Shown here: positions 2,609 through 23,432 of the stretch, piece by piece
How the letters are laid out: every line of letters starts with the position of its first letter
Position numbering within the stretch: the stretch's first letter is position 1
Virus record (IMG/VR): IMGVR_UViG_3300032893_000030
Span: 9,454-73,453 of that record
DNA from: a virus
Reading direction: 5' to 3' (one strand)
Length of the DNA stretch: 64,000 nt
Translations under genes and position numbers: made by a program
The notes under the pieces: generated by a model
Database searches by the model: none
What the model was told of the DNA's origin: nothing
What the model saw: only the letters and a program-made list of their open reading frames with translations

Positions 2609-4207
2609 ATGATGCCCAAGAACATTACATTCGATCAGGAAGCCACCGCCAAACTCAAGGCCGGCATCGACAAACTTGCAAACGCAGTCAAGGTTACTCT
2701 TGGCCCCGGAGGGACCAATGTGATCTATGAGAAGCAATTCGGTATTCCGTCCATCACAAAAGATGGTGTCACGGTTGCCCGTGAGATTTTTCTTGAAGAT
2801 ATCATTGAGAATATGGGTGCCCAGCTCGTCAAGGCTGTAGCCAATAAGACCGCAGATTCGGCTGGTGATGGAACTACGACAGCGACTGTATTGGCGCAGG
2901 CCATATTTACGGCTGGCATTAAGAACGTTGCCGCTGGGGCAAACAGGATGGATATCAAGAGAGGAATTGATGCTGCCGTTCAACAGACGGTAGCCAATCT
3001 CAAAAAAATGAGCCAGCCGGTTTCTGGAGATGACATTCAAAAGATTGCCACCATTTCTTCCAACGGAGATGAAGAAATTGGGCGATTGATCGCAACAGCC
3101 ATGGCAAAGGTCGGCAATGATGGGATTATTACCGTAGAGGACGCTAAGGCGACCAATAAGACGGAAGTTACCATTGTTGAAGGAATGCGCCTTGCGCGCG
3201 GATTCATCAGTCCCTATTTCATTACTGATCAGGAGAAGCAGGAAGCTGTGTTGATGGATCCATGCATTTTACTGTATGAAGGTGCGGTGACCAGCATGCG
3301 TCAACTTATTCCAATTCTTGAGGCGCAGCGTGAGAACAAGAAGACACAAGGTCGCCCAGTGCTTTTGATTGTGGAAGATGTTATCGGAGAAGGATTGTAC
3401 ACCCTGATCAAGAATTTTGTGCAGAAAGCCTTTGTTGGATGTGCGATTCAATGCCCTGATTTTGGCGAACAGCGCCGCGAGATCATGAAGGATATTGCGG
3501 CCATGACCAATGCCACAGTAATCAACAAAGAAACTGGATTGACGCTGGAGAAGGCAACACCGGACCATCTGGGTGGTGCTGAAAAAGTGCGTATTACCAA
3601 GGGCACGACTATTATCATTGGTGGACACGGACAGGGACCACGTAGTCAGCAGCGCATTGCGCATTTGAAGGCGCAACTGGAAGATGAGAATGTCTCAGAA
3701 GCATCAGGCAACCAGATCAGGGAGCGGCTGGCAAATTTGAGCAATGGCATTGCTGTGATTCATGTGGGGGGAGCAACTGATGTTGAGATTCTGGAGAAGA
3801 AAGACCGGCTTGATGATGCATTACACGCAACGCGGGCCGCTGTCCAGGAAGGAATTCTTCCTGGCGGTGGTGTAGCGCTGATTAGAAGCATGCCATCTGA
3901 AGTTCCGCCTGGTAATCCGGATTTTATTACCGGTGTCGATATCATTGAATCGGCTATTCAGGAACCGCTCAAGATCATCGCTGAGAATGCCGGCCAGAAC
4001 AAAGATCTAGTATTAAGTAAGGTGCTTGAAATGGAAGGAAACGTTGGATATGATGCCAAGCAACTCAAATATGTTGACATGATTGAGGCAGGCATCATCG
4101 ATCCAACAAAAGTTGTACGTCTGGCGCTGGAGAATGCGGCATCCATCGCTGGATTGTTATTGACCAGCCGCGCAGTTATTTCTCACGTTGAACCACCGCA
4201 ACAATGA
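2609..4207 (+). CDS. groL: chaperonin GroEL (Cpn60), phage-encoded
   Basis: 532 aa. Unmistakable Cpn60 sequence, including the ATP-binding AGDGTTTATVLA motif and conserved equatorial/apical segments. Lacks the C-terminal GGM repeat tail. Confidence 0.95.
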   Translation: MMPKNITFDQEATAKLKAGIDKLANAVKVTLGPGGTNVIYEKQFGIPSITKDGVTVAREIFLEDIIENMGAQLVKAVANKTADSAGDGTTTATVLAQAIFTAGIKNVAAGANRMDIKRGIDAAVQQTVANLKKMSQPVSGDDIQKIATISSNGDEEIGRLIATAMAKVGNDGIITVEDAKATNKTEVTIVEGMRLARGFISPYFITDQEKQEAVLMDPCILLYEGAVTSMRQLIPILEAQRENKKTQGRPVLLIVEDVIGEGLYTLIKNFVQKAFVGCAIQCPDFGEQRREIMKDIAAMTNATVINKETGLTLEKATPDHLGGAEKVRITKGTTIIIGGHGQGPRSQQRIAHLKAQLEDENVSEASGNQIRERLANLSNGIAVIHVGGATDVEILEKKDRLDDALHATRAAVQEGILPGGGVALIRSMPSEVPPGNPDFITGVDIIESAIQEPLKIIAENAGQNKDLVLSKVLEMEGNVGYDAKQLKYVDMIEAGIIDPTKVVRLALENAASIAGLLLTSRAVISHVEPPQQ

Positions 4208-4596
4208 ACTTATCCAAAGGAATTCCGCTCGAAGATCGAGTGTTGATCAAACCAAAAACTCCTGAAGAAAAAGTAGGAGATTTTTATCTCGGTGAAAAGG
4301 ATATCGAGAAACCCGTTGAGGGTGAAGTCATCTCGGTAGGTCCAGGTGCCTACAGTTACGGTGAAGAATTGATGGGGTCAATCCTTGAAGGAATCAATGT
4401 TCTTATTGAGAACAAAGGGTTGCAACCCATTCAGCGGCCATATTATCAGGCAATGAAGGTAAAGCCTGGTGATTATGTGTTGTACGGTCGTCATGCCGGC
4501 ACCAAACTAAGCATCAATGGAGAGACGTATCTGATGATTCGCCAATCGGACATTTTCATGATTATCGAAAAAGAGGTAGATTCGATAAACCAATGA
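4204..4596 (+). CDS. groS: co-chaperonin GroES/Cpn10-like (extended, gp31-like size)
   Basis: 130 aa. Overlaps groEL stop (ATGA). PLEDRVLIKP...GEVISVGPG...VKPGDYVLYGRHAGTKLSINGETYLMIRQSDIFMIIE aligns with GroES. About 35 extra residues relative to bacterial GroES. Confidence 0.85.
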   Translation: MNLSKGIPLEDRVLIKPKTPEEKVGDFYLGEKDIEKPVEGEVISVGPGAYSYGEELMGSILEGINVLIENKGLQPIQRPYYQAMKVKPGDYVLYGRHAGTKLSINGETYLMIRQSDIFMIIEKEVDSINQ

Positions 4597-4760
4597 TTCA
4601 TGTCTTGGAAAATTCTGATCGACTTAGATCCGAAAGGCTTAAAAAAGCAGTCAAACGGCTTAACCAAGAAAATGATAATCGCCGTCTTGGGAAACAATTC
4701 AAGGTAATTGTATTGATGATTATCATTGCCGTGGTATTATATTTCATCCGAAAACATTAA
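4593..4760 (+). CDS. small membrane protein (hypothetical)
   Basis: 55 aa, below the ORF-table cutoff. ATG overlaps groES stop (ATGA). Basic N-terminus then a hydrophobic helix (VIVLMIIIAVVLYFI). Confidence 0.3.
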   Translation: MIHVLENSDRLRSERLKKAVKRLNQENDNRRLGKQFKVIVLMIIIAVVLYFIRKH

Positions 4761-4926
4761 AACATAAATGGCGGTTTGAAAAATCGAACTGAAAGAGCAG
4801 TGGTCATGCTCCGTGGCCCCGAAAAGACGGGATAAGTCCACCTGAGTCGATGTAATAAATAACCTACGATGCGGGAGCATTTTAAGCCGAACAAACAGAT
4901 GCAATGCTAGCCAACGACCAATCGGT

Positions 4927-4952
4927 GGTCCCCGCTACAATGAGCGGGGACC
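4927..4952. terminator. GC-rich hairpin between convergent genes (putative bidirectional terminator)
   Basis: GGTCCCCGCT-acaatg-AGCGGGGACC. Perfect 10 bp stem at the convergence point of the + groES block and the - GT2 gene. It overlaps the GT2 stop codon. Flanking U-tracts are weak. Confidence 0.35.
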
Positions 4953-5702
4953 ATTAGGGTAGCGTTCCTTCACCCACTCTTTGATAAATTTTGGCAAGTC
5001 ACTTTGAATCGGAATGACATCTTCTGTTGCAAAGAATCTTGATGGATCAAATTCTTCAATCCCCTCAATGCGGCGCTCTGGTTCTAACCGAAACACTTCA
5101 TTGATCATGTGACGGATCTTCACAAGGTGTTTCTTTGGGTCACGCACGTAACCCATGTGAAATATGTGAATGTTCTCCATGAAATTAAAACACACTTCAT
5201 TGCAAGCCAGACTCTCCGCGTCATCATAGCACCGGTATTTGGTTTTTGCCAATCGAAGCACTTCTGTTGAGCACGGCTTACGCTCCTGTGGAACATTGAG
5301 TTGATGCCAAGGATCATAGAACAGGTTGTGCCGCTTGACCATGTACGATTCAAATCCATACTCGATTGCCTCTCTAATGAGGGGGAATGAATCTTCGTGG
5401 ATGATCTCATCCATCTGGAGATAAAATTGGTAATCGGTTTCAAGGCGACTGATGGCCATATTGGAAAAGTAGCTGAGTTTCTCTTTTCCTTGTTGGTTAC
5501 GCCATTCTTCTGGAGCACACAGAATAATGGTGGTTTTTTTATCTCCAAGTTTCAATAGATGCTCCTGTGTTCCGTCCGTAGACCCAGCATCCAGGACAAT
5601 GACATGATCCGCTAACTCCTGCATGCAGGCAATAGTTTCGCGGAAATTATAGTCTTGCTCTATGGCATTGTAGACGAAAGAAGCACATCCAAGTGTTTTC
5701 AT
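4935..5702 (-). CDS. glycosyltransferase family 2
   Basis: 255 aa. N-terminal GT-A motif VIVLDAGSTDGT and a DxD-like region (LQMDEII). Confidence 0.8.
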   Translation of the reverse strand: MKTLGCASFVYNAIEQDYNFRETIACMQELADHVIVLDAGSTDGTQEHLLKLGDKKTTIILCAPEEWRNQQGKEKLSYFSNMAISRLETDYQFYLQMDEIIHEDSFPLIREAIEYGFESYMVKRHNLFYDPWHQLNVPQERKPCSTEVLRLAKTKYRCYDDAESLACNEVCFNFMENIHIFHMGYVRDPKKHLVKIRHMINEVFRLEPERRIEGIEEFDPSRFFATEDVIPIQSDLPKFIKEWVKERYPNGPRSL

Positions 5703-5726
5703 TAAATTAGAGGTAAAATTACAGTT

Positions 5727-5975
5727 ATGGCATACGAAGATGATGATGAAACCGAAGGACCAGGTGCCCCGCCAGCACAGCCATCTGACAAAAAGAAACT
5801 CAAGCAGCGCATCAGTGATCTGAAGATGGATAAGCGCGTTGGTAAATGGGTGGGCGATCCGGATAATCCTACCCGTGGAATATATAAGGCACCACGATCA
5901 GAACAGCGTGAATACCGCAAGACCATCAAACAAAAGATCAGAAATTTGAGGTCTGGCCTGCCGGAGGATAGTTGA
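5727..5975 (+). CDS. small basic hypothetical protein
   Basis: 82 aa. Acidic N-terminus, Lys/Arg-rich remainder. GAGGT upstream of the ATG. Lone + strand gene between - strand enzymes. An alternative antisense ORF 5702..5980 looks like a low-complexity artefact. Confidence 0.4.
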   Translation: MAYEDDDETEGPGAPPAQPSDKKKLKQRISDLKMDKRVGKWVGDPDNPTRGIYKAPRSEQREYRKTIKQKIRNLRSGLPEDS

Positions 5976-5976
5976 T

Positions 5977-6519
5977 TCATATTTTCTGGGCAACAACGTA
6001 GAATGAATAGCGGTCGCGTCCATGATCTTCTCCGCTTTTTACGTGAACAAATCGCGCCTTAATGTTGCGTCCATTATAATCATAAGCTCCTCCACAGAAT
6101 GCGCGCTCGAAGAAGAACATGAAATTCATGAATGTGTAAGCGCGAATGTGCTCTTTGTTGTCATAATGATTATAGTGAATACCGTTCGGTAGATATAATA
6201 CCAGATGTCCACCAGGCTTGAGAATCCGATGCCATTCAGTGATCATCGCATAATCGTCCAGCACATGCTCGAGGAAATGCGAAGAGAATACGGTGTCAAA
6301 ATGCTGAGCAGGGTATGATGGGAATTCTCCTACAAAGGTTACCCCTTCCAGTTTACGTCCGTCCACTCCATCTGCCGAAGAAACAATCTTGTCCGGGCCG
6401 CAACCCCAATCCACAATTCGCCCTTTGATAAAACCCATCAATTCTGGCATGTCACGAACCTTGGCGGATTCAGACATATAAAGTTTCAGTTTAGGATCAT
6501 TGTTGTTTTCCATTGACAA
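5977..6519 (-). CDS. class I SAM-dependent methyltransferase (MT type 11-like)
   Basis: 180 aa. Motif I VDWGCGPDK and motif post-II LKPGGHLVLYLP. A second enzyme at 15520..16128 shares the HF(L/V)EH..LKP(G/E)G pattern. Confidence 0.8.
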   Translation of the reverse strand: MSMENNNDPKLKLYMSESAKVRDMPELMGFIKGRIVDWGCGPDKIVSSADGVDGRKLEGVTFVGEFPSYPAQHFDTVFSSHFLEHVLDDYAMITEWHRILKPGGHLVLYLPNGIHYNHYDNKEHIRAYTFMNFMFFFERAFCGGAYDYNGRNIKARFVHVKSGEDHGRDRYSFYVVAQKI

Positions 6520-7921
6520 AGGATTTGATACGGGTAATGATTGAAGTTGTGGTGTGCGTAATACATGGAGGCAGAATAGTATTTATCTGGCAATTTTGTC
6601 CGCGTACAGAAATCACATCATGGTAACAACCGGCAAACTGGCAATCATTTTGTACTACCTCAATATTGGTAAGATCAGCATACCGATAGGCGGGGTTTAC
6701 AGATCCGAAAAATATCATCGATTTTACTCCGCATGCTACCGCAATGTGAGCTGGGCCAGAATCCAATCCGATAAAGAAATCCGCTCCGGCGATCACGAAA
6801 CTCAACATAGCCTCTGTCATAGTTTCCATCTTAACACCCACGCCATGGTCCTCTCTTCCAACCTGAATCGCGATGTATCCTAATGATCGGACAAATTCGC
6901 CAATACGTTTCCAGTCAACGCCATGAACATATCGGTGCGGCATGTCATTATGGTCCAGATGGAATACGATGTACTTTTTGAATAATCTGGTTTTATCAAC
7001 CTTGATGTTCAATCGAGAATTTCTCAGCGGACCCTTTTTGACCTTAGAGAACTGATAAAATGACTTTAGTACTAATTGCTGTGGAGTGACCTCATAGGTC
7101 ATATCCAGGTTGATAGTGAGTGGATTAAACAATGTGCCTTCCACATCATCATAGAATTCAATCGGGAAATAGTGATTTTTAAAGAGAGCATAGTTCTTCT
7201 CAGTTGTCTTCAAAATTATCCGATAACCATTGCTGTAATACCATTCCATGACTGGCTCCAGCATGATCACATCACCCATCGCCATGTGCCGGACAAATAC
7301 TACAGGCGGTTTCCATGGGGGATGAAAATAATTATGGAATCCAAAAGTTGGTCCTTTTGGGGCATGTAGTTCATAGCTGAATGAATGAGCAAGATCATCA
7401 GGGGCATAACGTATACCTTGCTTTTCCAGATAACCTCTGTACAGCCGACAGATTATTTCATCCTCTGGAGAACAGATATCAATATTGGTATCACTGATAA
7501 GCAGGTCATGCAATTTTTTTGTACGCATTGAAAATCCACCATTGCCGACATTGCGGCCGTCACGGTACATCCATGGAGCGCCGATGTAATCGTACTCAAG
7601 GAATCTGTCATCCCAGGCGTCCGCATTGATGACATAGCCATCATGCTGGATGATCATTACATGAGAAGTCTCAATATACTTACCCATTTCTTTGACGATA
7701 TAGCGATTGTAATCGACTACCGATCGAAATGGTTCAATCAACACGCACTGAAAGGCCGTGGATTCAAATTGGATGTCACAGAACAAAATCACTTTCGCAG
7801 GTGCAATCTGCATGAGTGTTTTGTGAATGGCGGTGATTGTGTTGCCGTAATCTTTGGTTGTGACAGCAACCACTGTGACTTCTGGAAGCTGTAGGCGATT
7901 ATCCTGCGAGTTCTCTGACAT
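6497..7921 (-). CDS. two-domain glycosyltransferase: N-terminal DUF5672-like domain fused to GT9 (heptosyltransferase-like) domain
   Basis: N-terminal half has YDYIGAPW...GNGGFSMRTKK, which is DUF5672-like. C-terminal half has MAMGDVIMLEPV... and FFIGLDSGPAHIAVACGVKSMIFFG, the GT9 signature. The longest ORF starts at 7996 but would overlap the upstream gene by 98 nt. In-frame ATG at 7921 preferred. Confidence 0.7.
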   Translation of the reverse strand: MSENSQDNRLQLPEVTVVAVTTKDYGNTITAIHKTLMQIAPAKVILFCDIQFESTAFQCVLIEPFRSVVDYNRYIVKEMGKYIETSHVMIIQHDGYVINADAWDDRFLEYDYIGAPWMYRDGRNVGNGGFSMRTKKLHDLLISDTNIDICSPEDEIICRLYRGYLEKQGIRYAPDDLAHSFSYELHAPKGPTFGFHNYFHPPWKPPVVFVRHMAMGDVIMLEPVMEWYYSNGYRIILKTTEKNYALFKNHYFPIEFYDDVEGTLFNPLTINLDMTYEVTPQQLVLKSFYQFSKVKKGPLRNSRLNIKVDKTRLFKKYIVFHLDHNDMPHRYVHGVDWKRIGEFVRSLGYIAIQVGREDHGVGVKMETMTEAMLSFVIAGADFFIGLDSGPAHIAVACGVKSMIFFGSVNPAYRYADLTNIEVVQNDCQFAGCYHDVISVRGQNCQINTILPPCITHTTTSIITRIKSFVNGKQQ

Positions 7922-8744
7922 AAGATTCAAAACAGCGTTGATAATAAAAGTCGTATGCTTTTTCTCCAGTTGGAATATTGCATGGCGCAAAGTCACATGC
8001 TTCCAGTATTCGAGGCACTTTTATTGCCTCAGCGAGTGCCATGCACAGTGATTGGTTGCCGATAAAAAATGAAGAAGATTTTATGACGATGGCTAATTCC
8101 AAAAAATCATTCACTCTCAGGAGTGGAATTTTGAGGTTGAATTTTTCACTGAAATCGCGCCACTCATGATCCAGGCCTGCAAAGAGAAGGCGCGACTCAA
8201 GCGGCTTCAAAAATGAATAATTGATTTGCTCATTCCGATATCGCTCCGTGCGATTGATGATGATTGTGTTTGGCGGCACCATATCATTGGTTGGTACAAA
8301 AAGCCATGGCTTTGAAATATCACAAGCCATTTCAGGATAAATGTAGAATGGCCAGCGCGTGATACAGCCATACGGTTTGTTGATGTCCACATCCGGATTT
8401 ACCATCATGTCCAGATCGATGTATGTCTTGCTTTGATCTATCTCAGGGATGAACTGATATTCTGGTGTCCCTTCATTTTCTCGCCGGTAAGTGAAGGTAC
8501 TCACTTCAACAATCCAGTCTTGCGACAGGAGAAGAGGCTTGAGCATTTTGACGTTGTGTTCTTGCAAAAGAATTCCATCGTCAGGATGCTTTGCTCCTTC
8601 ATAAAAGAACCCGATCAACCCTAATCCTAGATGAAGATGCGCTGGCCGATTAAACTTCCGGCAAACTTCCCGGATGCCGGCTAGTGACTGAATCAAATCT
8701 CCTGGTAGAAGAGAGAATTTGAAGTTTATCGGATCGGTTGTCAT
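7899..8744 (-). CDS. GT9-like glycosyltransferase (heptosyltransferase homologue)
   Basis: 281 aa. C-terminal LLFAGLDHEW...FFIGNQSLCMALAEAIKVPRILE matches the GT9 nucleotide-sugar binding region. Confidence 0.65.
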   Translation of the reverse strand: MTTDPINFKFSLLPGDLIQSLAGIREVCRKFNRPAHLHLGLGLIGFFYEGAKHPDDGILLQEHNVKMLKPLLLSQDWIVEVSTFTYRRENEGTPEYQFIPEIDQSKTYIDLDMMVNPDVDINKPYGCITRWPFYIYPEMACDISKPWLFVPTNDMVPPNTIIINRTERYRNEQINYSFLKPLESRLLFAGLDHEWRDFSEKFNLKIPLLRVNDFLELAIVIKSSSFFIGNQSLCMALAEAIKVPRILEACDFAPCNIPTGEKAYDFYYQRCFESYVRELAG

Positions 8745-8765
8745 TGTAGCAATTTTCGCTTAATT

Positions 8766-9059
8766 TTGATTCAACTTAAAAAAAATTCTATGGCACGTTC
8801 AATTGATGTCCTTGTTTACCACTTTGTTGCCGGCGATCCTAACGGAGGACCCGCGAAATTGCTGGGTACGAGGCGCAGAGGTATCTCCGTGGATAACATC
8901 TTGGCACTTGATTCAGTCAATGTCCGAGGCGGGATGTCCGTCTACGGCCTTCCCATGCTGTATGGGAAGATTACATTGAAGCAGCCAGGATTGAGCCAGG
9001 AACTCTTCGTCATCGACACGGTTCAAGATCTCCTCAACAAAGAGAATACAGGAAACTAA
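8766..9059 (+). CDS. hypothetical protein (terminator-insulated small gene)
   Basis: 97 aa ORF. Probable start ATG 8790 (MARSIDVL...). AT-rich upstream region containing TAATTTTG. Followed by two hairpins. Confidence 0.4.
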   Translation: MIQLKKNSMARSIDVLVYHFVAGDPNGGPAKLLGTRRRGISVDNILALDSVNVRGGMSVYGLPMLYGKITLKQPGLSQELFVIDTVQDLLNKENTGN

Positions 9060-9066
9060 AACGAAA

Positions 9067-9090
9067 ATGCCGGAGCGTAATCCGGCATTT
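9067..9090 (+). terminator. hairpin ATGCCGGA-gcgtaa-TCCGGCAT
   Basis: 8 bp GC-rich stem immediately after the stop of the 8766..9059 gene. Short T stretch follows. Confidence 0.35.
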
Positions 9091-9125
9091 CGTGGCAACT
9101 TCCTCATTATTTGTTTTTCGGTTGT

Positions 9126-9160
9126 GCCTTCGGGGTGGTTCCCGAAGGCTTTTTTGTTTC
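9126..9160 (+). terminator. rho-independent terminator
   Basis: GCCTTCGGG-gtggtt-CCCGAAGGC followed by TTTTTTGTTT. Textbook intrinsic terminator. Confidence 0.7.
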
Positions 9161-9212
9161 ATCAAAGCTATACAAAAGTTTTTCATATTCAAATGTTCAT
9201 TATTTTAGTGGG

Positions 9213-9941
9213 ATGATTTTTTTGGAGGATTATTTCATTGTTCGGCCTGATTCATTCTATGCCGAGAAGAAAACCGCAACGGGACTTGAAACCCTCAATA
9301 CAGCATGGATCATGCGCGGTGATCGCGATGAAAACGAATTCAAATGCCTTAAAGGAACCATCATTGCCTCCCCGATCGGGTATTCATTGAACCGGTATTC
9401 GCCAATTGATCGCGGACTTCCAAATCATCGGCTATTCATCAGCCATGACCGTCTTCAGTATCGCGAGAATACCGGAGCCAACATTGAGAAAACCCCCTAT
9501 CATCCGGGAATGATGCTTGATTTCAAATACCTGAGTTTTCAAGATTATGCCCAGCGCGTAACAGCAAAAAAGGGTGATCAAGTCTACTTTCATCCACATG
9601 TAACCGAACAGGAAAATCTATTTCCGGATGGCACCTATAAAGTGCGTGTTGATCAATTGATCTGCACACTCGATCCTATCTGTCCACAAGGCCAATATGT
9701 ATTGATCCAGCCGGTTATGGAATCCGAAGATGAGATCACCATGGGTGGATTTCAAATCAAAATTGAGGCGCAAGTAAAAGCACTCCAGGGAATTGTGCGG
9801 TACACGAATAATGGGATGGTGAGTGCTGGAGATCATGTAATTTTCGAAGAGGCATCTGATTGGGAAGTTGACATTGAGGGTGAAAAATTTTATGTGATGC
9901 AAATGGAAAATCTCCTGATGAAACTAAAACCAGCAGTATGA
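9213..9941 (+). CDS. tandem (double) Cpn10/GroES-fold protein
   Basis: 243 aa from ATG 9213. Table ORF starts at 9111 but that would include the terminator. C-terminal half ITMGGFQIKIEAQVKALQGIVRYTNNGMVSAGDHVIFEEASDWEVDIEGEKFYVMQMENLLMKL aligns with GroES (TAGGIVL...GEVLAVGNG...VKVGDIVIF...IDNEEVLIMSESDILAIV). N-terminal half has a weaker repeat of the same pattern (FIVRPDSFYAEKKTATGL...KGTIIASPIG...KKGDQVYFHPHVTEQENLFPDGTYKVRVDQLICTL). Confidence 0.5.
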   Translation: MIFLEDYFIVRPDSFYAEKKTATGLETLNTAWIMRGDRDENEFKCLKGTIIASPIGYSLNRYSPIDRGLPNHRLFISHDRLQYRENTGANIEKTPYHPGMMLDFKYLSFQDYAQRVTAKKGDQVYFHPHVTEQENLFPDGTYKVRVDQLICTLDPICPQGQYVLIQPVMESEDEITMGGFQIKIEAQVKALQGIVRYTNNGMVSAGDHVIFEEASDWEVDIEGEKFYVMQMENLLMKLKPAV

Positions 9942-10315
9942 TAAAGCAACTTGATTATGTGGTTTTTCCCAGCGAAGAAAAAACCATTTCAGTGGAAGAC
10001 GATGATCAATATGGCGGTGCCCATCGCTATGTGATCAGGAATTGCCGAGGTTTCAATGACGGTAAAACGGAATACATCGAGCAGCCACAAGTCATTCAGT
10101 TCGTCAAGAAACTTGATGACGGGACTATTATTGATGGATTACAATCTGAGCAGCTCGCCCTGGTTCTCTTTGATCGTGCCAAGAAACTCAATGAACGATT
10201 CCCAAGTACACAGAACGAGACGATGCTTGAAGGATTGAAAATTTTTCTTCAGGCATGTCAGGATCGTGTACAGGAAAGAATGTCGCGCGGAGTAATGGGC
10301 GAACTCAAGAAGTAA
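9938..10315 (+). CDS. hypothetical protein
   Basis: 125 aa. ATGA overlap with the upstream gene. No family recognised. Confidence 0.45.
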   Translation: MIKQLDYVVFPSEEKTISVEDDDQYGGAHRYVIRNCRGFNDGKTEYIEQPQVIQFVKKLDDGTIIDGLQSEQLALVLFDRAKKLNERFPSTQNETMLEGLKIFLQACQDRVQERMSRGVMGELKK

Positions 10316-16847: not shown

Positions 16848-18338
16848 TTATTGAATTCCTAAAATTTGAAAATACATCCGTGAATGATTGCCAAGTGAGC
16901 TGATTGCTGACAGCGGGAAATTCGCTGTAGTTCCGCCTCCAGCAGTTGAGAAACTACCAGCACCAAGCATTAGACCGGCTGATGTACCATTGGTTGATCC
17001 CATTACTCTGAAGATAGAGTTAACCATCGTACCAGCGAAGTAGTTTGAGTACTGCACGTTAGCGCCAGTCATATTTGAATAACCACCAGCAGAATTTGTT
17101 GCCGATGAAGAACTGTAACCAATGACTGCCCAATATGGTCCATCCAAAAGACTTCCGATCATTTCAATGTCAATGAACCGGCCAGCGGAAAACTGTGTAG
17201 CAATCTGATTTGTGGTCAGTGAATAGTTAGTATTGGATATGGAATATTGCGTAGTTAATGTCGTTCCTGCGCCATTGGCATGCGCGGAAAAAGCCTGTGT
17301 CACGGAGTATTGAGTACCATTGACGGCAACACTCATGGAGTTCATGAATGTGTAACCGTTGCTTCCGGAAGTGACTGAATAAAGCTGGGTTGAATTTGTT
17401 CCTGTGCCGACTGAATAGATCACAGCGTTCCATGTGCTATACAATGCTCCTGACACATTGGCCGTCTGTGCTGTTGTACCAAAAGTGGTACTACCTGTTG
17501 TCATGCTTACAGGAATACGTAAGTACGACATGGTGATTGGATTTGGCACCTGAAATACAGCGGCGTGTGATATAGAGACACCGTTTATTCCACCAGTTGC
17601 AGCAGCAATAGGAGCAAAGAAATTTTCGTAAGATGAAATGAATGGCTGTACAACAGCAATCACCAATGATGAGTTGGAAAATCCAACTGAAGCAAGACCA
17701 CTACCATAAATCGATTGTGAACGCGCATCAAAAGTTGATGACGTTGATTGCCCTCCTATCGTGTTACCTACTGCATATTCACCGAATGTCTGATTGGACT
17801 GTGAGAATGAAACAGTTCCGGTAATAGTCGAACCACTTAATCCAAAAGAAATGTTATTGGAATTGGAAAAAACAACTGATCCAAGATTGCCACTACTTCC
17901 ACCGGCAGAGAAATTTACCGGTGAAGGCGCTGCGGAAAATGATGCAGTGACTGTTGATCCACTCAGTCCGAATGAAATGCTATTGGCATTTGAGAAGACA
18001 AGACTACTCAACAGATTACTTGCTGTACCGGCAGAAAAAGCAATGTTTGTCAAACTCGAAGCAACTGATGCGGTAACTACCGATGAGTTGCTCATTCCAA
18101 ACGTCACGTTGTTGCTGTTGGAGAAGAAGATATCTCCGGTGCGTCCAACTTGAGTTCCGGCACTTATTCCTTGGACATTGCTTTGCGTCTGATTTGACTG
18201 TGAAAAAGATGCTGTGACAGTCTGTCCGTTGATTCCAAAAGAAACACTGTTACTATTTGAGAATACAACTTGCCCTAATGAGGCCGAACCAGCACCTGCT
18301 GAAATCGAACCTGGCGCTATGAGTTGTTCAGCAATCAC
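16848..18338 (-). CDS. tail fibre / receptor-binding protein with internal repeats
   Basis: 496 aa. At least 4 tandem ~35-40 aa repeats of (V/I)(V/F)FSNSN-x-(S/T)FG-x-(S/N)G-x-T(V/I)TAS. The repeats are also visible at DNA level around 17.8-18.2 kb. Confidence 0.7.
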   Translation of the reverse strand: MIAEQLIAPGSISAGAGSASLGQVVFSNSNSVSFGINGQTVTASFSQSNQTQSNVQGISAGTQVGRTGDIFFSNSNNVTFGMSNSSVVTASVASSLTNIAFSAGTASNLLSSLVFSNANSISFGLSGSTVTASFSAAPSPVNFSAGGSSGNLGSVVFSNSNNISFGLSGSTITGTVSFSQSNQTFGEYAVGNTIGGQSTSSTFDARSQSIYGSGLASVGFSNSSLVIAVVQPFISSYENFFAPIAAATGGINGVSISHAAVFQVPNPITMSYLRIPVSMTTGSTTFGTTAQTANVSGALYSTWNAVIYSVGTGTNSTQLYSVTSGSNGYTFMNSMSVAVNGTQYSVTQAFSAHANGAGTTLTTQYSISNTNYSLTTNQIATQFSAGRFIDIEMIGSLLDGPYWAVIGYSSSSATNSAGGYSNMTGANVQYSNYFAGTMVNSIFRVMGSTNGTSAGLMLGAGSFSTAGGGTTANFPLSAISSLGNHSRMYFQILGIQ

Positions 18339-18931
18339 TTAGCGGTGGCAGTAATAGAATCCATCCGGCCGTTATTGCGGCGCTGGATGACAAAGTTCCA
18401 TTCTTTAGGTGATGTCTTGGTAGAAAGTCCCTTGCTGATTTCCATCAAGTGTTGTGAGTAATCGGGAGATTCGGACTGTTCTTTGGATTGAATGGCCACG
18501 ATCAAATCAGCGATGTCTTTGGAATTTCGATTTGCGGAAAGTTCAATGAGTCGAATGGCCTTATCAATCAATGCTCCATACTTCTCATTGTTGGCTGTTA
18601 CCAGGGAAGAGATGGTTGAAGTCATCTTCTCATTCTGCTCTTTGATCTCCTGCACAATCTGAGTCAGGCGAGTGTTGGTCTTAGCCACGTCGGGCACGTC
18701 AACCCGAAGTGTCACTTTACTGAGTGCCTCCAGGGTAGTATTGATCTTGCCAAGCGCCTGGCCGATGGAAGTTTTCAACTCCTCATCGAAATGTTGCACA
18801 TCACCAAGTTTGCTTAATGCTTCAGTGAGTTCAGTAATGAGTCCATTGAGATAAGCATCGCGCTCCTGGCTCTGCTTTTCAGTGGATCTGATCTCTTCGA
18901 GTAAGTCTTCAACCCTGCTCATAGTATGCAA
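18335..18931 (-). CDS. coiled-coil protein (possible fibre assembly/structural)
   Basis: 198 aa, predominantly alpha-helical heptads. ATGA-type overlap with the fibre gene. Confidence 0.45.
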   Translation of the reverse strand: MHTMSRVEDLLEEIRSTEKQSQERDAYLNGLITELTEALSKLGDVQHFDEELKTSIGQALGKINTTLEALSKVTLRVDVPDVAKTNTRLTQIVQEIKEQNEKMTSTISSLVTANNEKYGALIDKAIRLIELSANRNSKDIADLIVAIQSKEQSESPDYSQHLMEISKGLSTKTSPKEWNFVIQRRNNGRMDSITATAK

Positions 18932-21507
18932 TTTACGACTTTTTCAAGTGCAGAATATTTGTTCTTCAAAGCCGTTCTGGCCTGATAGGCTTTGACTTTG
19001 ACTGTTTCACCGGGTGAAGTAGTCGATGGCATCTCCACCATGGTATTCAGATGCTCTTTGGGGATATCTCGTTTGAATAAGTCCTTGAGAGCATTCTTAA
19101 TTTCCTCAGCAGGCTTTTCTTCATAGACCCATGCCTTTTCGCCATTTTCAAGAGTGATTTCCTTGCGATTGTATTTCTCCTCCCAATGATCGAGTTTCTC
19201 AATTTGCTCTGGGGTCAGCGTCAAGACGTGGCCCTGGACTTGATGTTCTCCTTCAGGATGGAAATCTGGATATTTATTTTCGTTAGTTATTGTACCGCGC
19301 GCGGTTGCCGGTTCAACAGGAACATCACCTTCAATGCCTAATGCCTGACGGCGCGTGGCCTGATCTTGAAGGGTGCCATAGACAAAGACTTTTTCAGGAG
19401 AAGTAGATGTCTCAGTGGTAGAAGCAGGAGCCGTCATCGTTTTAGTCTGGTCGATCGGCTCCTGTTGTGCTTCCAAAGGCTCCGTCCTGGACTGTTCGCC
19501 TTCTTTCGGTTGGTTTATTTGTTCATCTGCTTGAACCTCTTTATTTTTGTGTGAGGCATTTTCTTTATGGGTCACGCTTGGAATTTCGCTAACGTCAGCA
19601 TTCTCTGTCCCCAATGTGGTATTAGATTCTTTCGTCCTCCCAGCCGTAGTACTGGTAGAATTTTCTGTAGCAAGAATTGCCGAGCCGCGTACTATCGCGT
19701 CCACAATAGGGGCCACTATGTCGGAAGAACGTTTAGAGGAAAGCGCATTGATGAGCACAGACTTGTTATGCAACAAATCATTGGTCGTAAACTTCTTTCC
19801 ACTGAAATTGTTCACCACATCAATGGGGACAAAAGGGACAATCGCCCTGAAAATCTTGTCATTGTTAATGCCTCCCAGCACATGAGAGAGCACATTAAGC
19901 CTAGATGGGACGTCGAGTTGGGAATATCCCTTTTCAAGCAAGGATGGAGTACTGCTAAGATTGCTGAAAAACTCGGAATGAGTCAGGGGGCGATTTCCAG
20001 TTACTTCAGTAAGTGGAATATTCGAAGGTGATTTTATCTCTTGTTTTTGGCCGCTACTTTCTTCGCGATTTCCGGATGGTCCCGAAACCATTCCGCTATT
20101 TTGAGTCGGCGCATTGCCTGACCCTTTGATAGATTCGGTTTGGATAGGTTCCGCCCGCTCTCCGATTTTGCTTGCCAACCGTGATTCGTTTGTACCAGCA
20201 TCGTTTTTCGTGTTTAGTTGATCTTCAACTTTTTTTGCTACTTGATCAGCATTCTCTGTGGTTGCTCCGGCAGTTGCCTGAGAAACAACTTTATTTGCTT
20301 GTGCTAAGGTAGCGGATTTTTCTGTAGGAGTTGCCGTTGGGAGTTTGGCAAGTTTATCGGATGTACGCGATCCAATGGCATGCAGACCAATACCACCAAC
20401 AGCACCTTGGGCCATGGATTCAAGGCGTTCGAGTGCTTTATCATTCGTGTTGGCTTCATTCCATGCTTTACCGAGATCCTTGCCGGCAACTTGAGAAGCA
20501 CCAATTTGTTCCATCCAAGTCTGTGCATACTCGGTGCCAGCTTCAATGCTACCGGTCTTGATCATATCCGTTGCCCGCCTGCGAAGGCTTGAAATCAGTG
20601 ATCGCTTACCAAATGACATGACATTTTTTGCACCCACATAGTCCAGCAATCCTGCTGCTGTACCATAAGCAATAGCAAGTGCAGGTTTATCCAGATTTTT
20701 GTCGATGACTTCAGATGGTGTGATTCCTTCATCTTGAGCAATCTTTTTGACTCCATCCATGTAGATTGAACCAACCTCCTGACCAATGGATGTTGCACCA
20801 CCAGAAAGAACAGATGCCGGTATTTGTCCAGCGGCTTGTCCTAAAGCATAGGATACCCAATTAAGAGCATCGATAGGATCTTTAATTTTATCAAGACTGC
20901 TTGTGAGATTTTTAACTGTCTCTTCACCCTTGGCACTACGCTCAATTGCCCAATTGATGAGATTCTTTTTGGTATTTGCGGCAATTTCTTCTGAAGTAAC
21001 AATTGGCTTTTTGAAGTCGGGGAACATTGCCTCTGCGCTTGGACGATCCATGCTTGGCTTTGTCACTGCCGCCATGCCAGCAGTTATTGCGGAAGGAAGC
21101 TGATAGGCAAGCGTATTCCATCCACTCTTACTACCTGTTACGACAATATTTTTTTCCCGCTCTTCCGGAAAGACACCGGCATTATTTCTGGCGCGTATCT
21201 CATCCCAAGAAGGAGGCTTAAATCTTTCAAGTGCTCTTTGTGAATCGGTCTTCTTGAGATTTGCTTCGAAACTTTCCAGAAGCGTAGGCTTTGGCAAAGG
21301 CTTTGGCCCCTGCGCTAAAGGCTGCGAAGATTCTATGCCACCAGGAGCGGTCGTACCATCTTCTGAATTTGGAGCGCCGGTGATAACGTCTTTTTTTTTT
21401 ACTTCAACAGCATCGGATGGAGGAGTCCATTCTTGTTCAGCGGTTGTAGTTTCAACAGCGTCAGATGGCGGTTCCCATCCCTTTGGGTTTTCTGGTCCAG
21501 TCTTCAT
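18919..21507 (-). CDS. large virion protein with C-terminal gamma-glutamyl cyclotransferase (AIG2/GGCT)-like domain; central part antisense to an HNH gene
   Basis: 862 aa continuous ORF. N-terminal ~490 aa are protein-like, with repeated W(E/T)PPSDAVE and GQIPASVLSGGATSIGQEVGSIYMDG. C-terminal ~110 aa EKVFVYGTLQDQ... carries the VxxYGTL AIG2/GGCT hallmark. Residues ~490-650 are low complexity and lie exactly antisense to the HNH ORF 19567..20031. Confidence 0.5.
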   Translation of the reverse strand: MKTGPENPKGWEPPSDAVETTTAEQEWTPPSDAVEVKKKDVITGAPNSEDGTTAPGGIESSQPLAQGPKPLPKPTLLESFEANLKKTDSQRALERFKPPSWDEIRARNNAGVFPEEREKNIVVTGSKSGWNTLAYQLPSAITAGMAAVTKPSMDRPSAEAMFPDFKKPIVTSEEIAANTKKNLINWAIERSAKGEETVKNLTSSLDKIKDPIDALNWVSYALGQAAGQIPASVLSGGATSIGQEVGSIYMDGVKKIAQDEGITPSEVIDKNLDKPALAIAYGTAAGLLDYVGAKNVMSFGKRSLISSLRRRATDMIKTGSIEAGTEYAQTWMEQIGASQVAGKDLGKAWNEANTNDKALERLESMAQGAVGGIGLHAIGSRTSDKLAKLPTATPTEKSATLAQANKVVSQATAGATTENADQVAKKVEDQLNTKNDAGTNESRLASKIGERAEPIQTESIKGSGNAPTQNSGMVSGPSGNREESSGQKQEIKSPSNIPLTEVTGNRPLTHSEFFSNLSSTPSLLEKGYSQLDVPSRLNVLSHVLGGINNDKIFRAIVPFVPIDVVNNFSGKKFTTNDLLHNKSVLINALSSKRSSDIVAPIVDAIVRGSAILATENSTSTTAGRTKESNTTLGTENADVSEIPSVTHKENASHKNKEVQADEQINQPKEGEQSRTEPLEAQQEPIDQTKTMTAPASTTETSTSPEKVFVYGTLQDQATRRQALGIEGDVPVEPATARGTITNENKYPDFHPEGEHQVQGHVLTLTPEQIEKLDHWEEKYNRKEITLENGEKAWVYEEKPAEEIKNALKDLFKRDIPKEHLNTMVEMPSTTSPGETVKVKAYQARTALKNKYSALEKVVNCIL
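19567..20031 (+). CDS. HNH homing endonuclease (nested antisense in a - strand ORF)
   Basis: 154 aa. N-terminal zinc finger CPQCG...CSKNC. HNH motif EIVHHINGDKRDNRPENLVIVNASQHMREH. C-terminal HTH-like STAKIAEKLGMSQGAIS. Confidence 0.7.
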   Translation: MGHAWNFANVSILCPQCGIRFFRPPSRSTGRIFCSKNCRAAYYRVHNRGHYVGRTFRGKRIDEHRLVMQQIIGRKLLSTEIVHHINGDKRDNRPENLVIVNASQHMREHIKPRWDVELGISLFKQGWSTAKIAEKLGMSQGAISSYFSKWNIRR

Positions 21508-23432
21508 TTCTTTGTGTACACTTTTCCATCAGGACCAATCAACCGGTCACCTGATCGAAGTGCATTCCATTTTTTATTGAATTCTTCAGGATCGGATACT
21601 TTAGGTATGCCACTCGCGGCTTGTACTTTTTTTATCATATCCTCTTTGGCCTGTGTCTTCCGTTGTATCGTCTGTGCAGGTGTCTCCCTACCATAATTGT
21701 TTCCTGCCGCCTGCTGTATTCGTTGTTGGATTGCCTGATTAACCACTTTCATTTCCGGTGACCAATTCTTCTGGTTGTTAATATCGAATCCACCGGTAAT
21801 TGCCTTGATCCGATTTGTGTCTTGTTGATCAGCTACAACAAGTTCATTGTGTTCAACATCAAATCCGAGATATGGAAGCAATGCCTGATACTGATCCTTT
21901 TGATCAGGAGTCAATTCATCGAGTCCTGCAAGCTGGCGAATCTTATTAATCTGATCACGTTGTTGAGTAAGTGTGGCAACTTTATTGGCATCACCGGCAA
22001 TATTTGCATCTGCGATCTGCTGATTGAGACTTTTCTCTTGCTGAAATGCGGCCTGTAAAACCTTTGCTTTGTCGGTGGTTGTTCCGCGAAGCGCTATCTT
22101 AATTCCTGTGATGGCATTCTTTTTATTCGGATCAAAGGCACTATCTGGAAGTGCCTGGATATCCTGAATCATTTGCTGTGGTGATTTCGCAGTGATGTTG
22201 ATCGGTGTATCATCTTTCCCGACCGGCACCAATTGATATCCCTCAACAGAGAAATCACGTTTGCCGCGCATGTCATGTGTGACTTCACCAGTATTCAGAT
22301 CAAGTCGATTGGCACTTGTGCTCGGCATTGAAAATGAGCGTCCGGTTTTTAATGGGATTACGCCACCAGGGCCAGCAAAGTCATTTTCATGAAATGTGTA
22401 GGCGTGTGCAACTTTGTCGTTGGTGAATCCTAAGTCGCCTTCTGGAGTTCTGTTCTTGGCATCATAAGCATTGGAAAGCTGGACCTTCTCATAAGATGCC
22501 ATGTCTTTCTTAGCCAAATCACGCGCTCTTTCATTGAACTCAAGTGGTCGGCGTGTATTACCTTCTGTAATCCATGCTTTAGGATTCGGGTTCAAATCAG
22601 GATTATGCCGTAATTCAGAAAGTATCTCAACATCCGATTTGCCAGCCATCCAATTTGGATCACGCGCTTTATTCTCGCGGATTTCATTTACCAGTTGTTG
22701 ATTTGCGATCTCATCATAATATTGTGCGAAACGCTTGTCCTTGCGAAACATATCAACGACATGCGAATCGGTCACTCCCGGGGAGCCTTGATCATCAAAG
22801 AAAATCCGCGAGACAAGTTTTTTGGTCTTGATGCCGGATGGAGTAGTAACTTCTGTCTCATATTGCTTTTCCTTGTGGGCATTGACATAATCTGAAACAG
22901 CCTTTCCAGCATCGAATGATTTGAGTATATCGTTGCCTAAAGTATTTTTGAGATCCTGAATCTTTTGTCCGGTCTGCTGAATGTCTTGTTCGACCGGAAG
23001 ATTATTGCCCTGAAGCAAACTCATCACCCGGTCACGATCGTAATTTGGCTTATAGTATGGGTCGTCATTTTGCCTGGCTGTGATCTGAGTATCGAGTTCC
23101 TTGAGTTGTGCTGCCTGAGCTTTTGATTCTGCATTGAGTGATTGAAGTGTCATCAAGCGCTGTTTCACTGCCGGATCAATCAATCCGGTATTGCGCAGGC
23201 TACTGTAAGCATAACGGCCTGCATCAATTGCTTCTTGGTTGATTTTTTGATTGTGGGTTGGAATTGTCGTATCGGCAACAAATGACCGGTAGTTGTTGGC
23301 CATATGCTGTTCGGCCAATTGTCTGTTGGCGCGATATTGTTGAACTGCCGCTAATGCGGTAAGTTCCCTGGGACCAATCTGAAGGTCGGGAGCAACGAAA
23401 GGCCTGGCATTGTAAAACTCTCTGTATGCCAT
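21504..23432 (-). CDS. hypothetical virion protein
   Basis: 642 aa. Gln/Asn/Asp-rich, coiled-coil segments. ATGA overlap with the downstream gene. Confidence 0.5.
   Translation of the reverse strand: MAYREFYNARPFVAPDLQIGPRELTALAAVQQYRANRQLAEQHMANNYRSFVADTTIPTHNQKINQEAIDAGRYAYSSLRNTGLIDPAVKQRLMTLQSLNAESKAQAAQLKELDTQITARQNDDPYYKPNYDRDRVMSLLQGNNLPVEQDIQQTGQKIQDLKNTLGNDILKSFDAGKAVSDYVNAHKEKQYETEVTTPSGIKTKKLVSRIFFDDQGSPGVTDSHVVDMFRKDKRFAQYYDEIANQQLVNEIRENKARDPNWMAGKSDVEILSELRHNPDLNPNPKAWITEGNTRRPLEFNERARDLAKKDMASYEKVQLSNAYDAKNRTPEGDLGFTNDKVAHAYTFHENDFAGPGGVIPLKTGRSFSMPSTSANRLDLNTGEVTHDMRGKRDFSVEGYQLVPVGKDDTPINITAKSPQQMIQDIQALPDSAFDPNKKNAITGIKIALRGTTTDKAKVLQAAFQQEKSLNQQIADANIAGDANKVATLTQQRDQINKIRQLAGLDELTPDQKDQYQALLPYLGFDVEHNELVVADQQDTNRIKAITGGFDINNQKNWSPEMKVVNQAIQQRIQQAAGNNYGRETPAQTIQRKTQAKEDMIKKVQAASGIPKVSDPEEFNKKWNALRSGDRLIGPDGKVYTKK

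Follow-up and report, generated by a model that had tools for sequence, protein, structure and literature searches.

A probable homing-type HNH endonuclease gene lying antisense and in codon register within a putative virion-protein gene of a phage with crAss-like features, and its recurrence in a clade of nested relatives

How can an endonuclease gene occupy the middle of another gene, on the opposite strand, and leave the reading frame of that gene whole? The question is raised by a stretch of 64,000 nucleotides (nt) from IMG/VR virus record IMGVR_UViG_3300032893_000030 (positions 9,454 to 73,453 of that record; hereafter the window, in whose coordinates positions are given), in which the open reading frame (ORF) listing places a 154-amino-acid (aa) ORF with HNH endonuclease motifs wholly within an 862-aa ORF of the other strand, both starting with ATG. 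The original prediction for this locus, made from the DNA letters and the ORF listing, had described the longer ORF as running uninterrupted through the shorter one, and so it does. We suggest, with a probability of roughly 75%, that a clade of homing-type HNH genes persists in giant virion-protein genes by keeping its mirror register free of stop codons, being translated through rather than spliced out. The two genes are:

18919..21507, - strand: host gene, an 862-aa ORF in a late structural and ejection-protein block; one gene call in six public contigs
19567..20031, + strand: HNH endonuclease gene, 154 aa; the same bases on the - strand encode host aa 493-647 (the 'mirror peptide')

The lower coordinates of the two ORFs differ by 648 nt (19567 - 18919), or 3 x 216, and because this offset is a multiple of three every HNH codon faces exactly one host codon. 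Given this exact antisense register, the genetic code allows a stop in the host frame only opposite a sense TTA, CTA or TCA codon, and the HNH gene has none of these among its 8 Leu and 12 Ser codons. Over 11,014 reference codons of the same genome these three account for 18% of Leu and 28.5% of Ser codons, and the chance of a stop-free mirror frame is P = 0.0046 when calculated from the per-codon frequency, or P = 0.0037 given the HNH protein sequence and the synonymous usage of the genome; counted directly, the HNH/host register is open in 3.4% of the 154-codon windows of reference genes. The adenine-thymine (AT) skew moves from ∼-0.3 to ∼0 exactly across 19600-20050, which fits + strand coding in that stretch. 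As a control, 10 other long antisense ORFs of the window were scanned against Pfam and none gave a match, so that the HNH ORF is not merely one of many chance ORFs.

The product of the + strand ORF matches Pfam HNH_3 (PF13392) with 47.1 bits against a cut-off of 24.8 (E 1.9e-12; aa 64-107, profile positions 4-46 of 46), as well as 22 PHROG families, mostly HNH endonuclease families (best E 2.8e-16). When 14 sequences were aligned, residues H64, H83, H84, N86, D91, N92, N96, H105, C34 and C38 were invariant, including the HNH core EHR...EHVHHING..DN..NL...H, and zinc-ribbon residues C14 and C17 were kept in at least 90% of the relatives. Several helix-turn-helix (HTH) families match aa 121-151, all below their Pfam cut-offs. 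The original prediction of a real HNH gene with zinc finger, HNH motif and HTH tail is thus borne out by Pfam HNH_3, PHROG and the invariant residues, and the parts of the protein can be placed as follows:

19606..19680, + strand: zinc-ribbon part (CPQCG ... FCSKNC; C14, C17, C34, C38), from the alignment of 14 relatives
19756..19887, + strand: HNH catalytic core, aa 64-107 (EHR..GRKLL..E.VHHING..DNR..NL....H), from Pfam HNH_3 and the invariant columns
19927..20019, + strand: C-terminal HTH tail, aa 121-151, from the sub-cut-off HTH matches

A PDB sequence search with the HNH profile gave spurious helical-repeat and zinc-finger matches only, an NCBIfam search gave nothing useful, and the protein was not found in a collection of 5.8 billion protein clusters, where the best match had 61% identity over 34% of the query. 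None of the three public contigs with listed gene calls has a call for the HNH gene. The window also holds a second HNH gene (1012-1494, + strand, 160 aa; PHROG HNH families, best E 3.9e-13), which is free-standing among + strand ORFs near the left end of the window and is ∼44-46% identical to nested-clade HNH cores over ∼60 residues (tblastn).

The same arrangement recurs well beyond the window. A sequence fetched as a relative of the host protein (L007) encodes a homologous 192-aa HNH protein, antisense and in the same register, within a 3366-aa ORF. Of the 17 closest HNH relatives in IMG/VR, 13 are nested in register within antisense ORFs that span from 667 to more than 3524 codons, and the two remaining antisense frames at these loci are closed. 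No ORF that large surrounds any of the 63 more distant HNH genes, whose longest in-register antisense stretch is 224 codons. Metagenome contigs supplied 10 new nested cases among the top 12 matches (the remaining two being a duplicate of an IMG/VR contig and a non-nested case), and in species-representative genome assemblies (metagenome-assembled genomes) the top three matches were all nested. Together the three collections yielded 26 further nested contigs, or 27 with the window, with host ORFs of 415 to more than 3500 codons, and in all 27 the insert is in frame and stop-free. Every nested HNH ORF is intact, and the 14 that were aligned retain the invariant catalytic residues. As the guanine plus cytosine (GC) content of the nested contigs spans 0.45 to 0.69, high GC alone fails to explain the open mirror frames.

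In a rough neighbour-joining tree the nested HNH genes form one block with a few free-standing members inside it, and those free-standing members (L013, L016, L017 and L018) carry three antisense stops each. The insertions occupy different positions in different hosts and fall into several unrelated contexts; one contig (L023) has two nested antisense in-register HNH genes (6001-6423 and 7345-7731), ∼38% identical to each other, within a single polyvalent-protein ORF (3133..10029, - strand, 2299 aa). The original prediction had allowed that an insertion might simply happen to preserve an open antisense frame; the open frame is instead a trait of the whole HNH clade.

Which of the two superimposed frames is under selection can be judged from a codon alignment of the 14 nested HNH genes. 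There are 20 invariant columns in the HNH frame versus one in the mirror frame, mean identity is 41% versus 29%, and divergence at HNH codon positions 1, 2 and 3 is 0.49, 0.40 and 0.58, in the order 3 > 1 > 2; the conserved amino-acid sequence is therefore that of the endonuclease. TTA, CTA and TCA are absent from all 193 Leu and 185 Ser codons of these genes, and the mirror frame is, as far as the aligned sequences indicate, at the least kept open. Between distant pairs, mirror-frame identity is 26.8%, compared with 22.0% expected from the sense constraint alone, and at matched GC content of third codon positions the same codon is used at identical residues in 48.7% of cases in nested pairs and 39.0% in free-standing pairs. 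Both values hint at some extra constraint from the host frame, which we regard as suggestive only because the pairs are phylogenetically non-independent. For at least 16 further protein clusters, with representatives 927-4927 aa long, similarity to the window protein is confined to the mirror segment (P0113, P0118, P0132, P0147, P0148, P0151, P0153, P0158, P0167, P0168, P0180, P0181, P0182, P0185, P0190 and P0195), and the backwards translation of the HNH gene apparently acts as an uncharacterised 'domain' in public protein collections. A stronger version, which we consider doubtful, would be true dual coding, in which the mirror peptide is itself selected, the HNH clade has co-evolved with polyvalent or cargo proteins, the backwards translation serves as a tolerated or useful module of an injected protein, and the opposite strand gives the endonuclease early expression inside a late gene.

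The host protein can be divided into conserved and low-complexity parts on either side of the insert:

20347..21252, - strand: conserved N-terminal core, aa 86-387, from protein relatives
20032..20346, - strand: linker 1, aa 388-492; hydrophobic fraction 0.13, coil in a low-confidence model
19390..19566, - strand: linker 2, aa 648-706; hydrophobic fraction 0.08
19111..19389, - strand: GGACT (gamma-glutamyl cyclotransferase-like) domain, aa 707-799; PF06094, E 8.6e-14
18922..19080, - strand: conserved C-terminal tail, aa 810-862 (...ALEKVVNCIL), common to HNH-less relatives

The GGACT domain, which is the only Pfam match of the 862-aa protein, and the N-terminal core flank the insert in one shared frame, and the insert must therefore be in frame itself. 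The mirror segment (aa 493-647), which contains IFRAIVPFVPIDVVNNFSGK, is rich in Ser, Thr, Asn, Val, Leu and Ile and has a hydrophobic fraction of 0.30; contrary to the original prediction it is not of low complexity, a description that belongs to the linkers flanking it (aa 388-492 and 648-706). The insert is thus placed in what is, by composition, a disordered linker of the host protein. An AlphaFold2 model of the 862-aa protein from a 3-sequence alignment was unusable (mean predicted local distance difference test score 32.8).

Two recognisable modules on opposite sides of the insert might be taken to mean that the insertion fused two formerly separate structural genes, one for an N-terminal core protein and one for a GGACT protein, as the original prediction had proposed for one of its two explanations. 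The host protein has 523 relatives in an exhaustive HMMER search. Relatives that lack the insert (L004-L006, P0085, P0110 and P0075) include proteins with both sides in a single chain. P0085 (768 aa) has the core and a GGACT domain 68% identical to that of the window, separated by 129 aa rather than the 278 aa of the window protein, a difference of 149 aa that is close to the 154 codons of the HNH gene. The 633-aa protein P0110 is similar to the window protein in three stretches, namely the N-terminus (aa 1-74), the core (aa 180-494) and the C-terminal tail (aa 783-862; 51% identity over 80 aa), and P0075 (780 aa) combines a GGACT domain (55% identical) with the tail. Core and tail also occur together in P0002 and P0003, for which the similarity to the window tail has shuffle p values of 0.004 and < 0.0005, respectively. 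Because P0110, P0085 and P0075 are collinear with the window protein as single HNH-less proteins, the 862-aa ORF is one gene with an insertion in a linker, and we give the fusion of two genes next to no credence. The rest of what had been offered stands, namely a nested antisense gene pair and an insertion that preserves the frame, which here amount to the same thing. The original prediction would have been contradicted by a conserved central segment with no HNH gene opposite it in related genomes; among the relatives, the segment is either absent or present with an HNH gene on the opposite strand.

More broadly, hundreds of proteins 600-4900 aa long, polyvalent proteins included, have this core as their N-terminal module, and the window protein, a candidate polyvalent protein, has one effector domain (GGACT) besides the shared core. 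A tail of ∼50 aa ends the short members of the core family (P0002, P0003, P0053, P0075 and P0110) with the pattern ...(L/I)xK(V/L)(V/I)(N/D)C(I/L/N)(L/H), and could serve as a signal for packaging or anchoring.

Of the host ORFs of nested relatives, nine were scanned against Pfam. Eight have polyvalent-protein domains (ART-PolyVal, LPD38, LPD1, LPD22, InPase and RadC), which share one frame across the insert, and the ninth (L024) gave no match. In four of the nested loci (L008, L011, L014 and L022) an ART-PolyVal-like domain is split by an insert of ∼180 aa, and in L009, as judged by sequence homology, the same domain is uninterrupted and represents the empty site, so that homologous sites are polymorphic for presence and absence of the element. 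Measured against this empty site the insert is no longer than the HNH gene, the 3′ end of which reaches into conserved host sequence, and there is therefore no room for an intron core.

This comparison bears on the most conventional account of such a locus, that a self-splicing element (an intein, or a group I or II intron with its endonuclease gene on the opposite strand) removes the insert and that the open frame is incidental. Homing endonuclease genes usually travel in introns or inteins, which favours such an account, and antisense-oriented endonuclease genes occur in some nuclear rDNA group I introns. However, no result obtained here points to such an element. Besides the lack of room at the empty site, Rfam gave no intron or other match in 18000-22000 of the window at E up to 1, Pfam found no intein (Hint) domain in the host frame, and an endonuclease encoded on the other strand cannot be an intein domain. 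Splicing would also make an in-frame, stop-free insert needless, yet the insert is both in 27 of 27 nested contigs. We consider a splicing element very improbable here, and Arsenault, Gosselin and Gogarten (2025, PMC11855218) were equally negative about one for the related ShiLan element.

The empty site bears equally on the possibility that the HNH protein has been domesticated, as a helper of the terminase in packaging or as a nuclease against competitors, with nesting serving to save space or to time expression. Some phages do have HNH proteins that help the terminase (cited in PMC11855218), and the intactness of all nested copies would suit such a role. Against this, the HNH gene of the window lies ∼25 kb from the terminase gene, in a genome that already has a second, free-standing HNH gene; its relatives are sporadically distributed, with close relatives of the host protein lacking HNH and an empty homologous site in existence; and the position of the insert varies between hosts, with two insertions in one ORF. 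On balance we think domestication unlikely.

The sequence of events that we favour begins with a mobile homing-type HNH gene that would have inserted backwards, codon on codon, in the disordered linker of a single large virion or cargo gene. The codons TTA, CTA and TCA can all be avoided by synonymous choice and the HNH lineage would have lost them, as a consequence of which, we propose, ribosomes translate the host mRNA across the insert without a break. The host protein would carry ∼155 extra 'mirror' residues between its N-terminal core and GGACT domain, with RNA or protein splicing unneeded. The HNH protein would come from a separate transcript of the opposite strand, cut insert-free alleles and spread by homing. 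It is from sequence that we infer a read-through protein that is made and works, transcription of the HNH gene from an internal promoter, and cutting and homing by its product.

One candidate for such a promoter was noted in the window, as a lead only:

19518..19549, + strand: candidate HNH promoter TTTG-N20-TATTTTTG, ending 18 nt before the ATG

The motif fits the -33/-7 promoter consensus of Bacteroidota. The full motif has four matches in the window, where 1.64 are expected, and a scan for sigma-70 promoters upstream of the HNH gene of the window found none. A near-consensus sigma-70 promoter is present in another nested locus, L019, where TTGCAA-16-TGGTATAAT (5832-5859; 10/12 matches, with an extended -10) lies ∼30 nt before the ATG of the nested HNH gene, in a sharp GC dip (0.32 versus ∼0.58) inside a host ORF of 3367 codons. 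The HNH segment of L019 is also lower in GC than its flanks.

The 5′ end of the window copy is unusual. It begins with a 13-residue lead before the zinc knuckle, compared with 4-6 residues in most relatives, and contains one copy of an exact direct repeat:

19595..19608, strand not assigned: 14-nt direct repeat TCAGCATTCTCTGT, copy 1, inside HNH codons 10-14
20246..20259, strand not assigned: 14-nt direct repeat TCAGCATTCTCTGT, copy 2, in linker 1, starting 651 nt (217 codons) from copy 1

A repeat of 14 nt was reached in 0 of 200 shuffles, and the similarity does not extend beyond the 14 nt. It may be an insertion-junction footprint, a recombination junction or a route to precise in-frame deletion. 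A flanking direct repeat was considered as a general hallmark of insertion and dropped, since 20 other nested loci have nothing comparable and it is significant in the window only.

Several observations weigh against persistence by a translated, stop-free mirror register. The long N-terminal lead and the 14-nt junction may mean that the native 5′ end has been replaced, in which case this copy could be inactive. The locus is variant-free in the window genome, a single base differing in one contig at a point 3 kb outside the gene, and therefore gives no sign of recent mobility or selection at this site. The window shows no enrichment of the -7 motif by itself, and the promoter lead there is a consensus match only; both transcription of the HNH gene and translation of the host through the insert are deduced rather than observed. 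More generally, open antisense frames would be fairly frequent by chance in high-GC hosts, the nested cases are not all phylogenetically independent, and near-identical copies of the HNH gene did not turn up in different contexts, which leaves homing a proposed activity for every member.

Some of these points could be read as the mark of a frozen accident: one lucky insertion, now immobile and possibly unexpressed, in which the open frame is an unselected by-product. The lack of variation at the locus fits this account, the odd 5′ end and 14-nt junction suggest a rearranged copy, and 3.4% of windows of this length are open by chance in the same register. It does not account for the same state in 26 further contigs from several unrelated contexts over a GC range of 0.45 to 0.69, for free-standing members of the clade that do carry antisense stops, or for nested ORFs that are all intact, with invariant catalytic residues in the 14 aligned. 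We therefore regard a frozen accident as quite improbable, and retention of the HNH gene as a translated segment as the better reading of the locus.

The surroundings of the host gene are those of a phage structural block. Its start overlaps the stop of an upstream 642-aa gene and its end overlaps the start of a downstream 198-aa gene, by a few bases each. Genes for the terminase, portal, virion proteins and a muzzle-like protein form, with their neighbours, a long co-directional - strand block at about 10.9-55.4 kb of the window, in which the terminase, portal and virion-protein PHROGs stand in the order expected for a crAss-like phage; the match to PF25729 (crAss_MUZ_C) is weak only. By gene content the phage thus appears to have crAss-like features, and from its position downstream of the terminase, portal and muzzle-like protein the 862-aa ORF, as in the original prediction, probably encodes a virion protein. 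A search of 50,697 phage records with the locus DNA and the 862-aa protein gave no match, nor did an IMG/VR scan with the whole 862-aa protein or a first metagenome scan with the N-terminal core. Two genes downstream, a 496-aa protein (16848-18338, - strand; 415 aa or 496 aa in public gene calls, which differ in its start) has several tandem copies of a ∼35-aa motif, ..VVFSNSNN(V/I)SFG(L/I)(S/N)G(S/Q)T(V/I)TAS.., which is fibre- or adhesin-like in look; it gave no Pfam or PHROG match.

Free-standing HNH homing endonucleases of phages (HNH_3; I-HmuI-like and T4 mobE-like) share with the nested genes their Pfam family, their build of zinc ribbon, HNH and HTH, and their sporadic distribution. Such genes sit between genes, as do the free-standing members of the present clade (L013, L016, L017 and L018), or split a host gene, whereas the HNH gene of the window lies inside an ORF that is left whole. 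Endonucleases borne by introns and inteins face the same problem, that a selfish gene inside an important gene must not destroy it; they are removed by RNA or protein splicing, and here translation apparently continues straight through the mirror frame. Phage polyvalent proteins are the hosts of most nested relatives, and the N-terminal core of the window protein is common to many such giants, although the window protein is itself short (862 aa) and has GGACT as its only effector domain. The terms 'antisense', 'opposite strand', 'homing' and 'intein' are absent from the description of these proteins by Iyer et al. (2017, PMC5512222), where HNH comes up a single time and on another subject.

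The closest parallel is the ShiLan domain, an insertion that leaves the frame of its host gene, for the mycobacteriophage DNA methylase gp65, free of stops (Arsenault, Gosselin and Gogarten 2025, PMC11855218). ShiLan is neither an intron nor an intein; it hides a zinc-finger HNH gene in another frame of the same strand, and its authors, who inferred that the insertion stays in the host protein as a loop that is tolerated, had no explanation for how the HNH protein is translated from within the host mRNA (PMC11855218). The insert of the window is likewise stop-free in the host frame with an HNH gene in another frame, and its HNH product is homologous to that of ShiLan (tblastn, E 2e-11, with 31.9% identity across aa 3-145, or 93% of the query). 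The HNH matches in cultured phages, comprising ShiLan with its relatives and the Cylindrospermopsis phage Cr-LKS3, were rejected as antisense cases, all being same-strand. In Cr-LKS3 (OM373202.1; our locus L089) the HNH relative at 2501-2920 is on the same strand as the DNA methylase gene g59 at an offset of 521 (mod 3 = 2), and looks like another hidden, out-of-frame HNH gene of the ShiLan type, in a cyanophage. Neither antisense nor polyvalent cases are mentioned in PMC11855218, and an antisense in-frame endonuclease was not found described in the literature searched.

The differences from ShiLan define what the present locus adds. The ShiLan HNH gene is on the same strand as its host, in frame 3 (offset 1787, mod 3 = 2), whereas that of the window is on the opposite strand and in register; the ShiLan host is an actinophage methylase, whereas here the hosts are virion/cargo or polyvalent proteins of a phage with crAss-like features and many other uncultured phages; and in the rough tree ShiLan-type sequences fall outside the nested clade. 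An antisense HNH gene can, moreover, use a transcript of its own, which would explain its expression, the open problem of the same-strand case. The survival of selfish endonuclease genes in important genes has been put down to splicing, in the form of introns or inteins, and the ShiLan paper proposed a third route, in which the insert is translated as part of the host protein, for same-strand genes in actinophage methylases. Our analysis would extend that route to an opposite-strand form with codons in register, general to an entire HNH clade and found in giant injected proteins of many uncultured phages. On a practical level, gene callers drop the nested HNH gene, and its backwards translation enters protein databases as an apparent domain; true dual coding, if it holds, would be a third general strategy of endonuclease persistence beside introns and inteins, and one invisible to current gene callers. 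The kind of element is thus known, having been recently recognised in ShiLan, whereas the opposite-strand, in-register and clade-wide form appears to be new, and apparently much more widespread.

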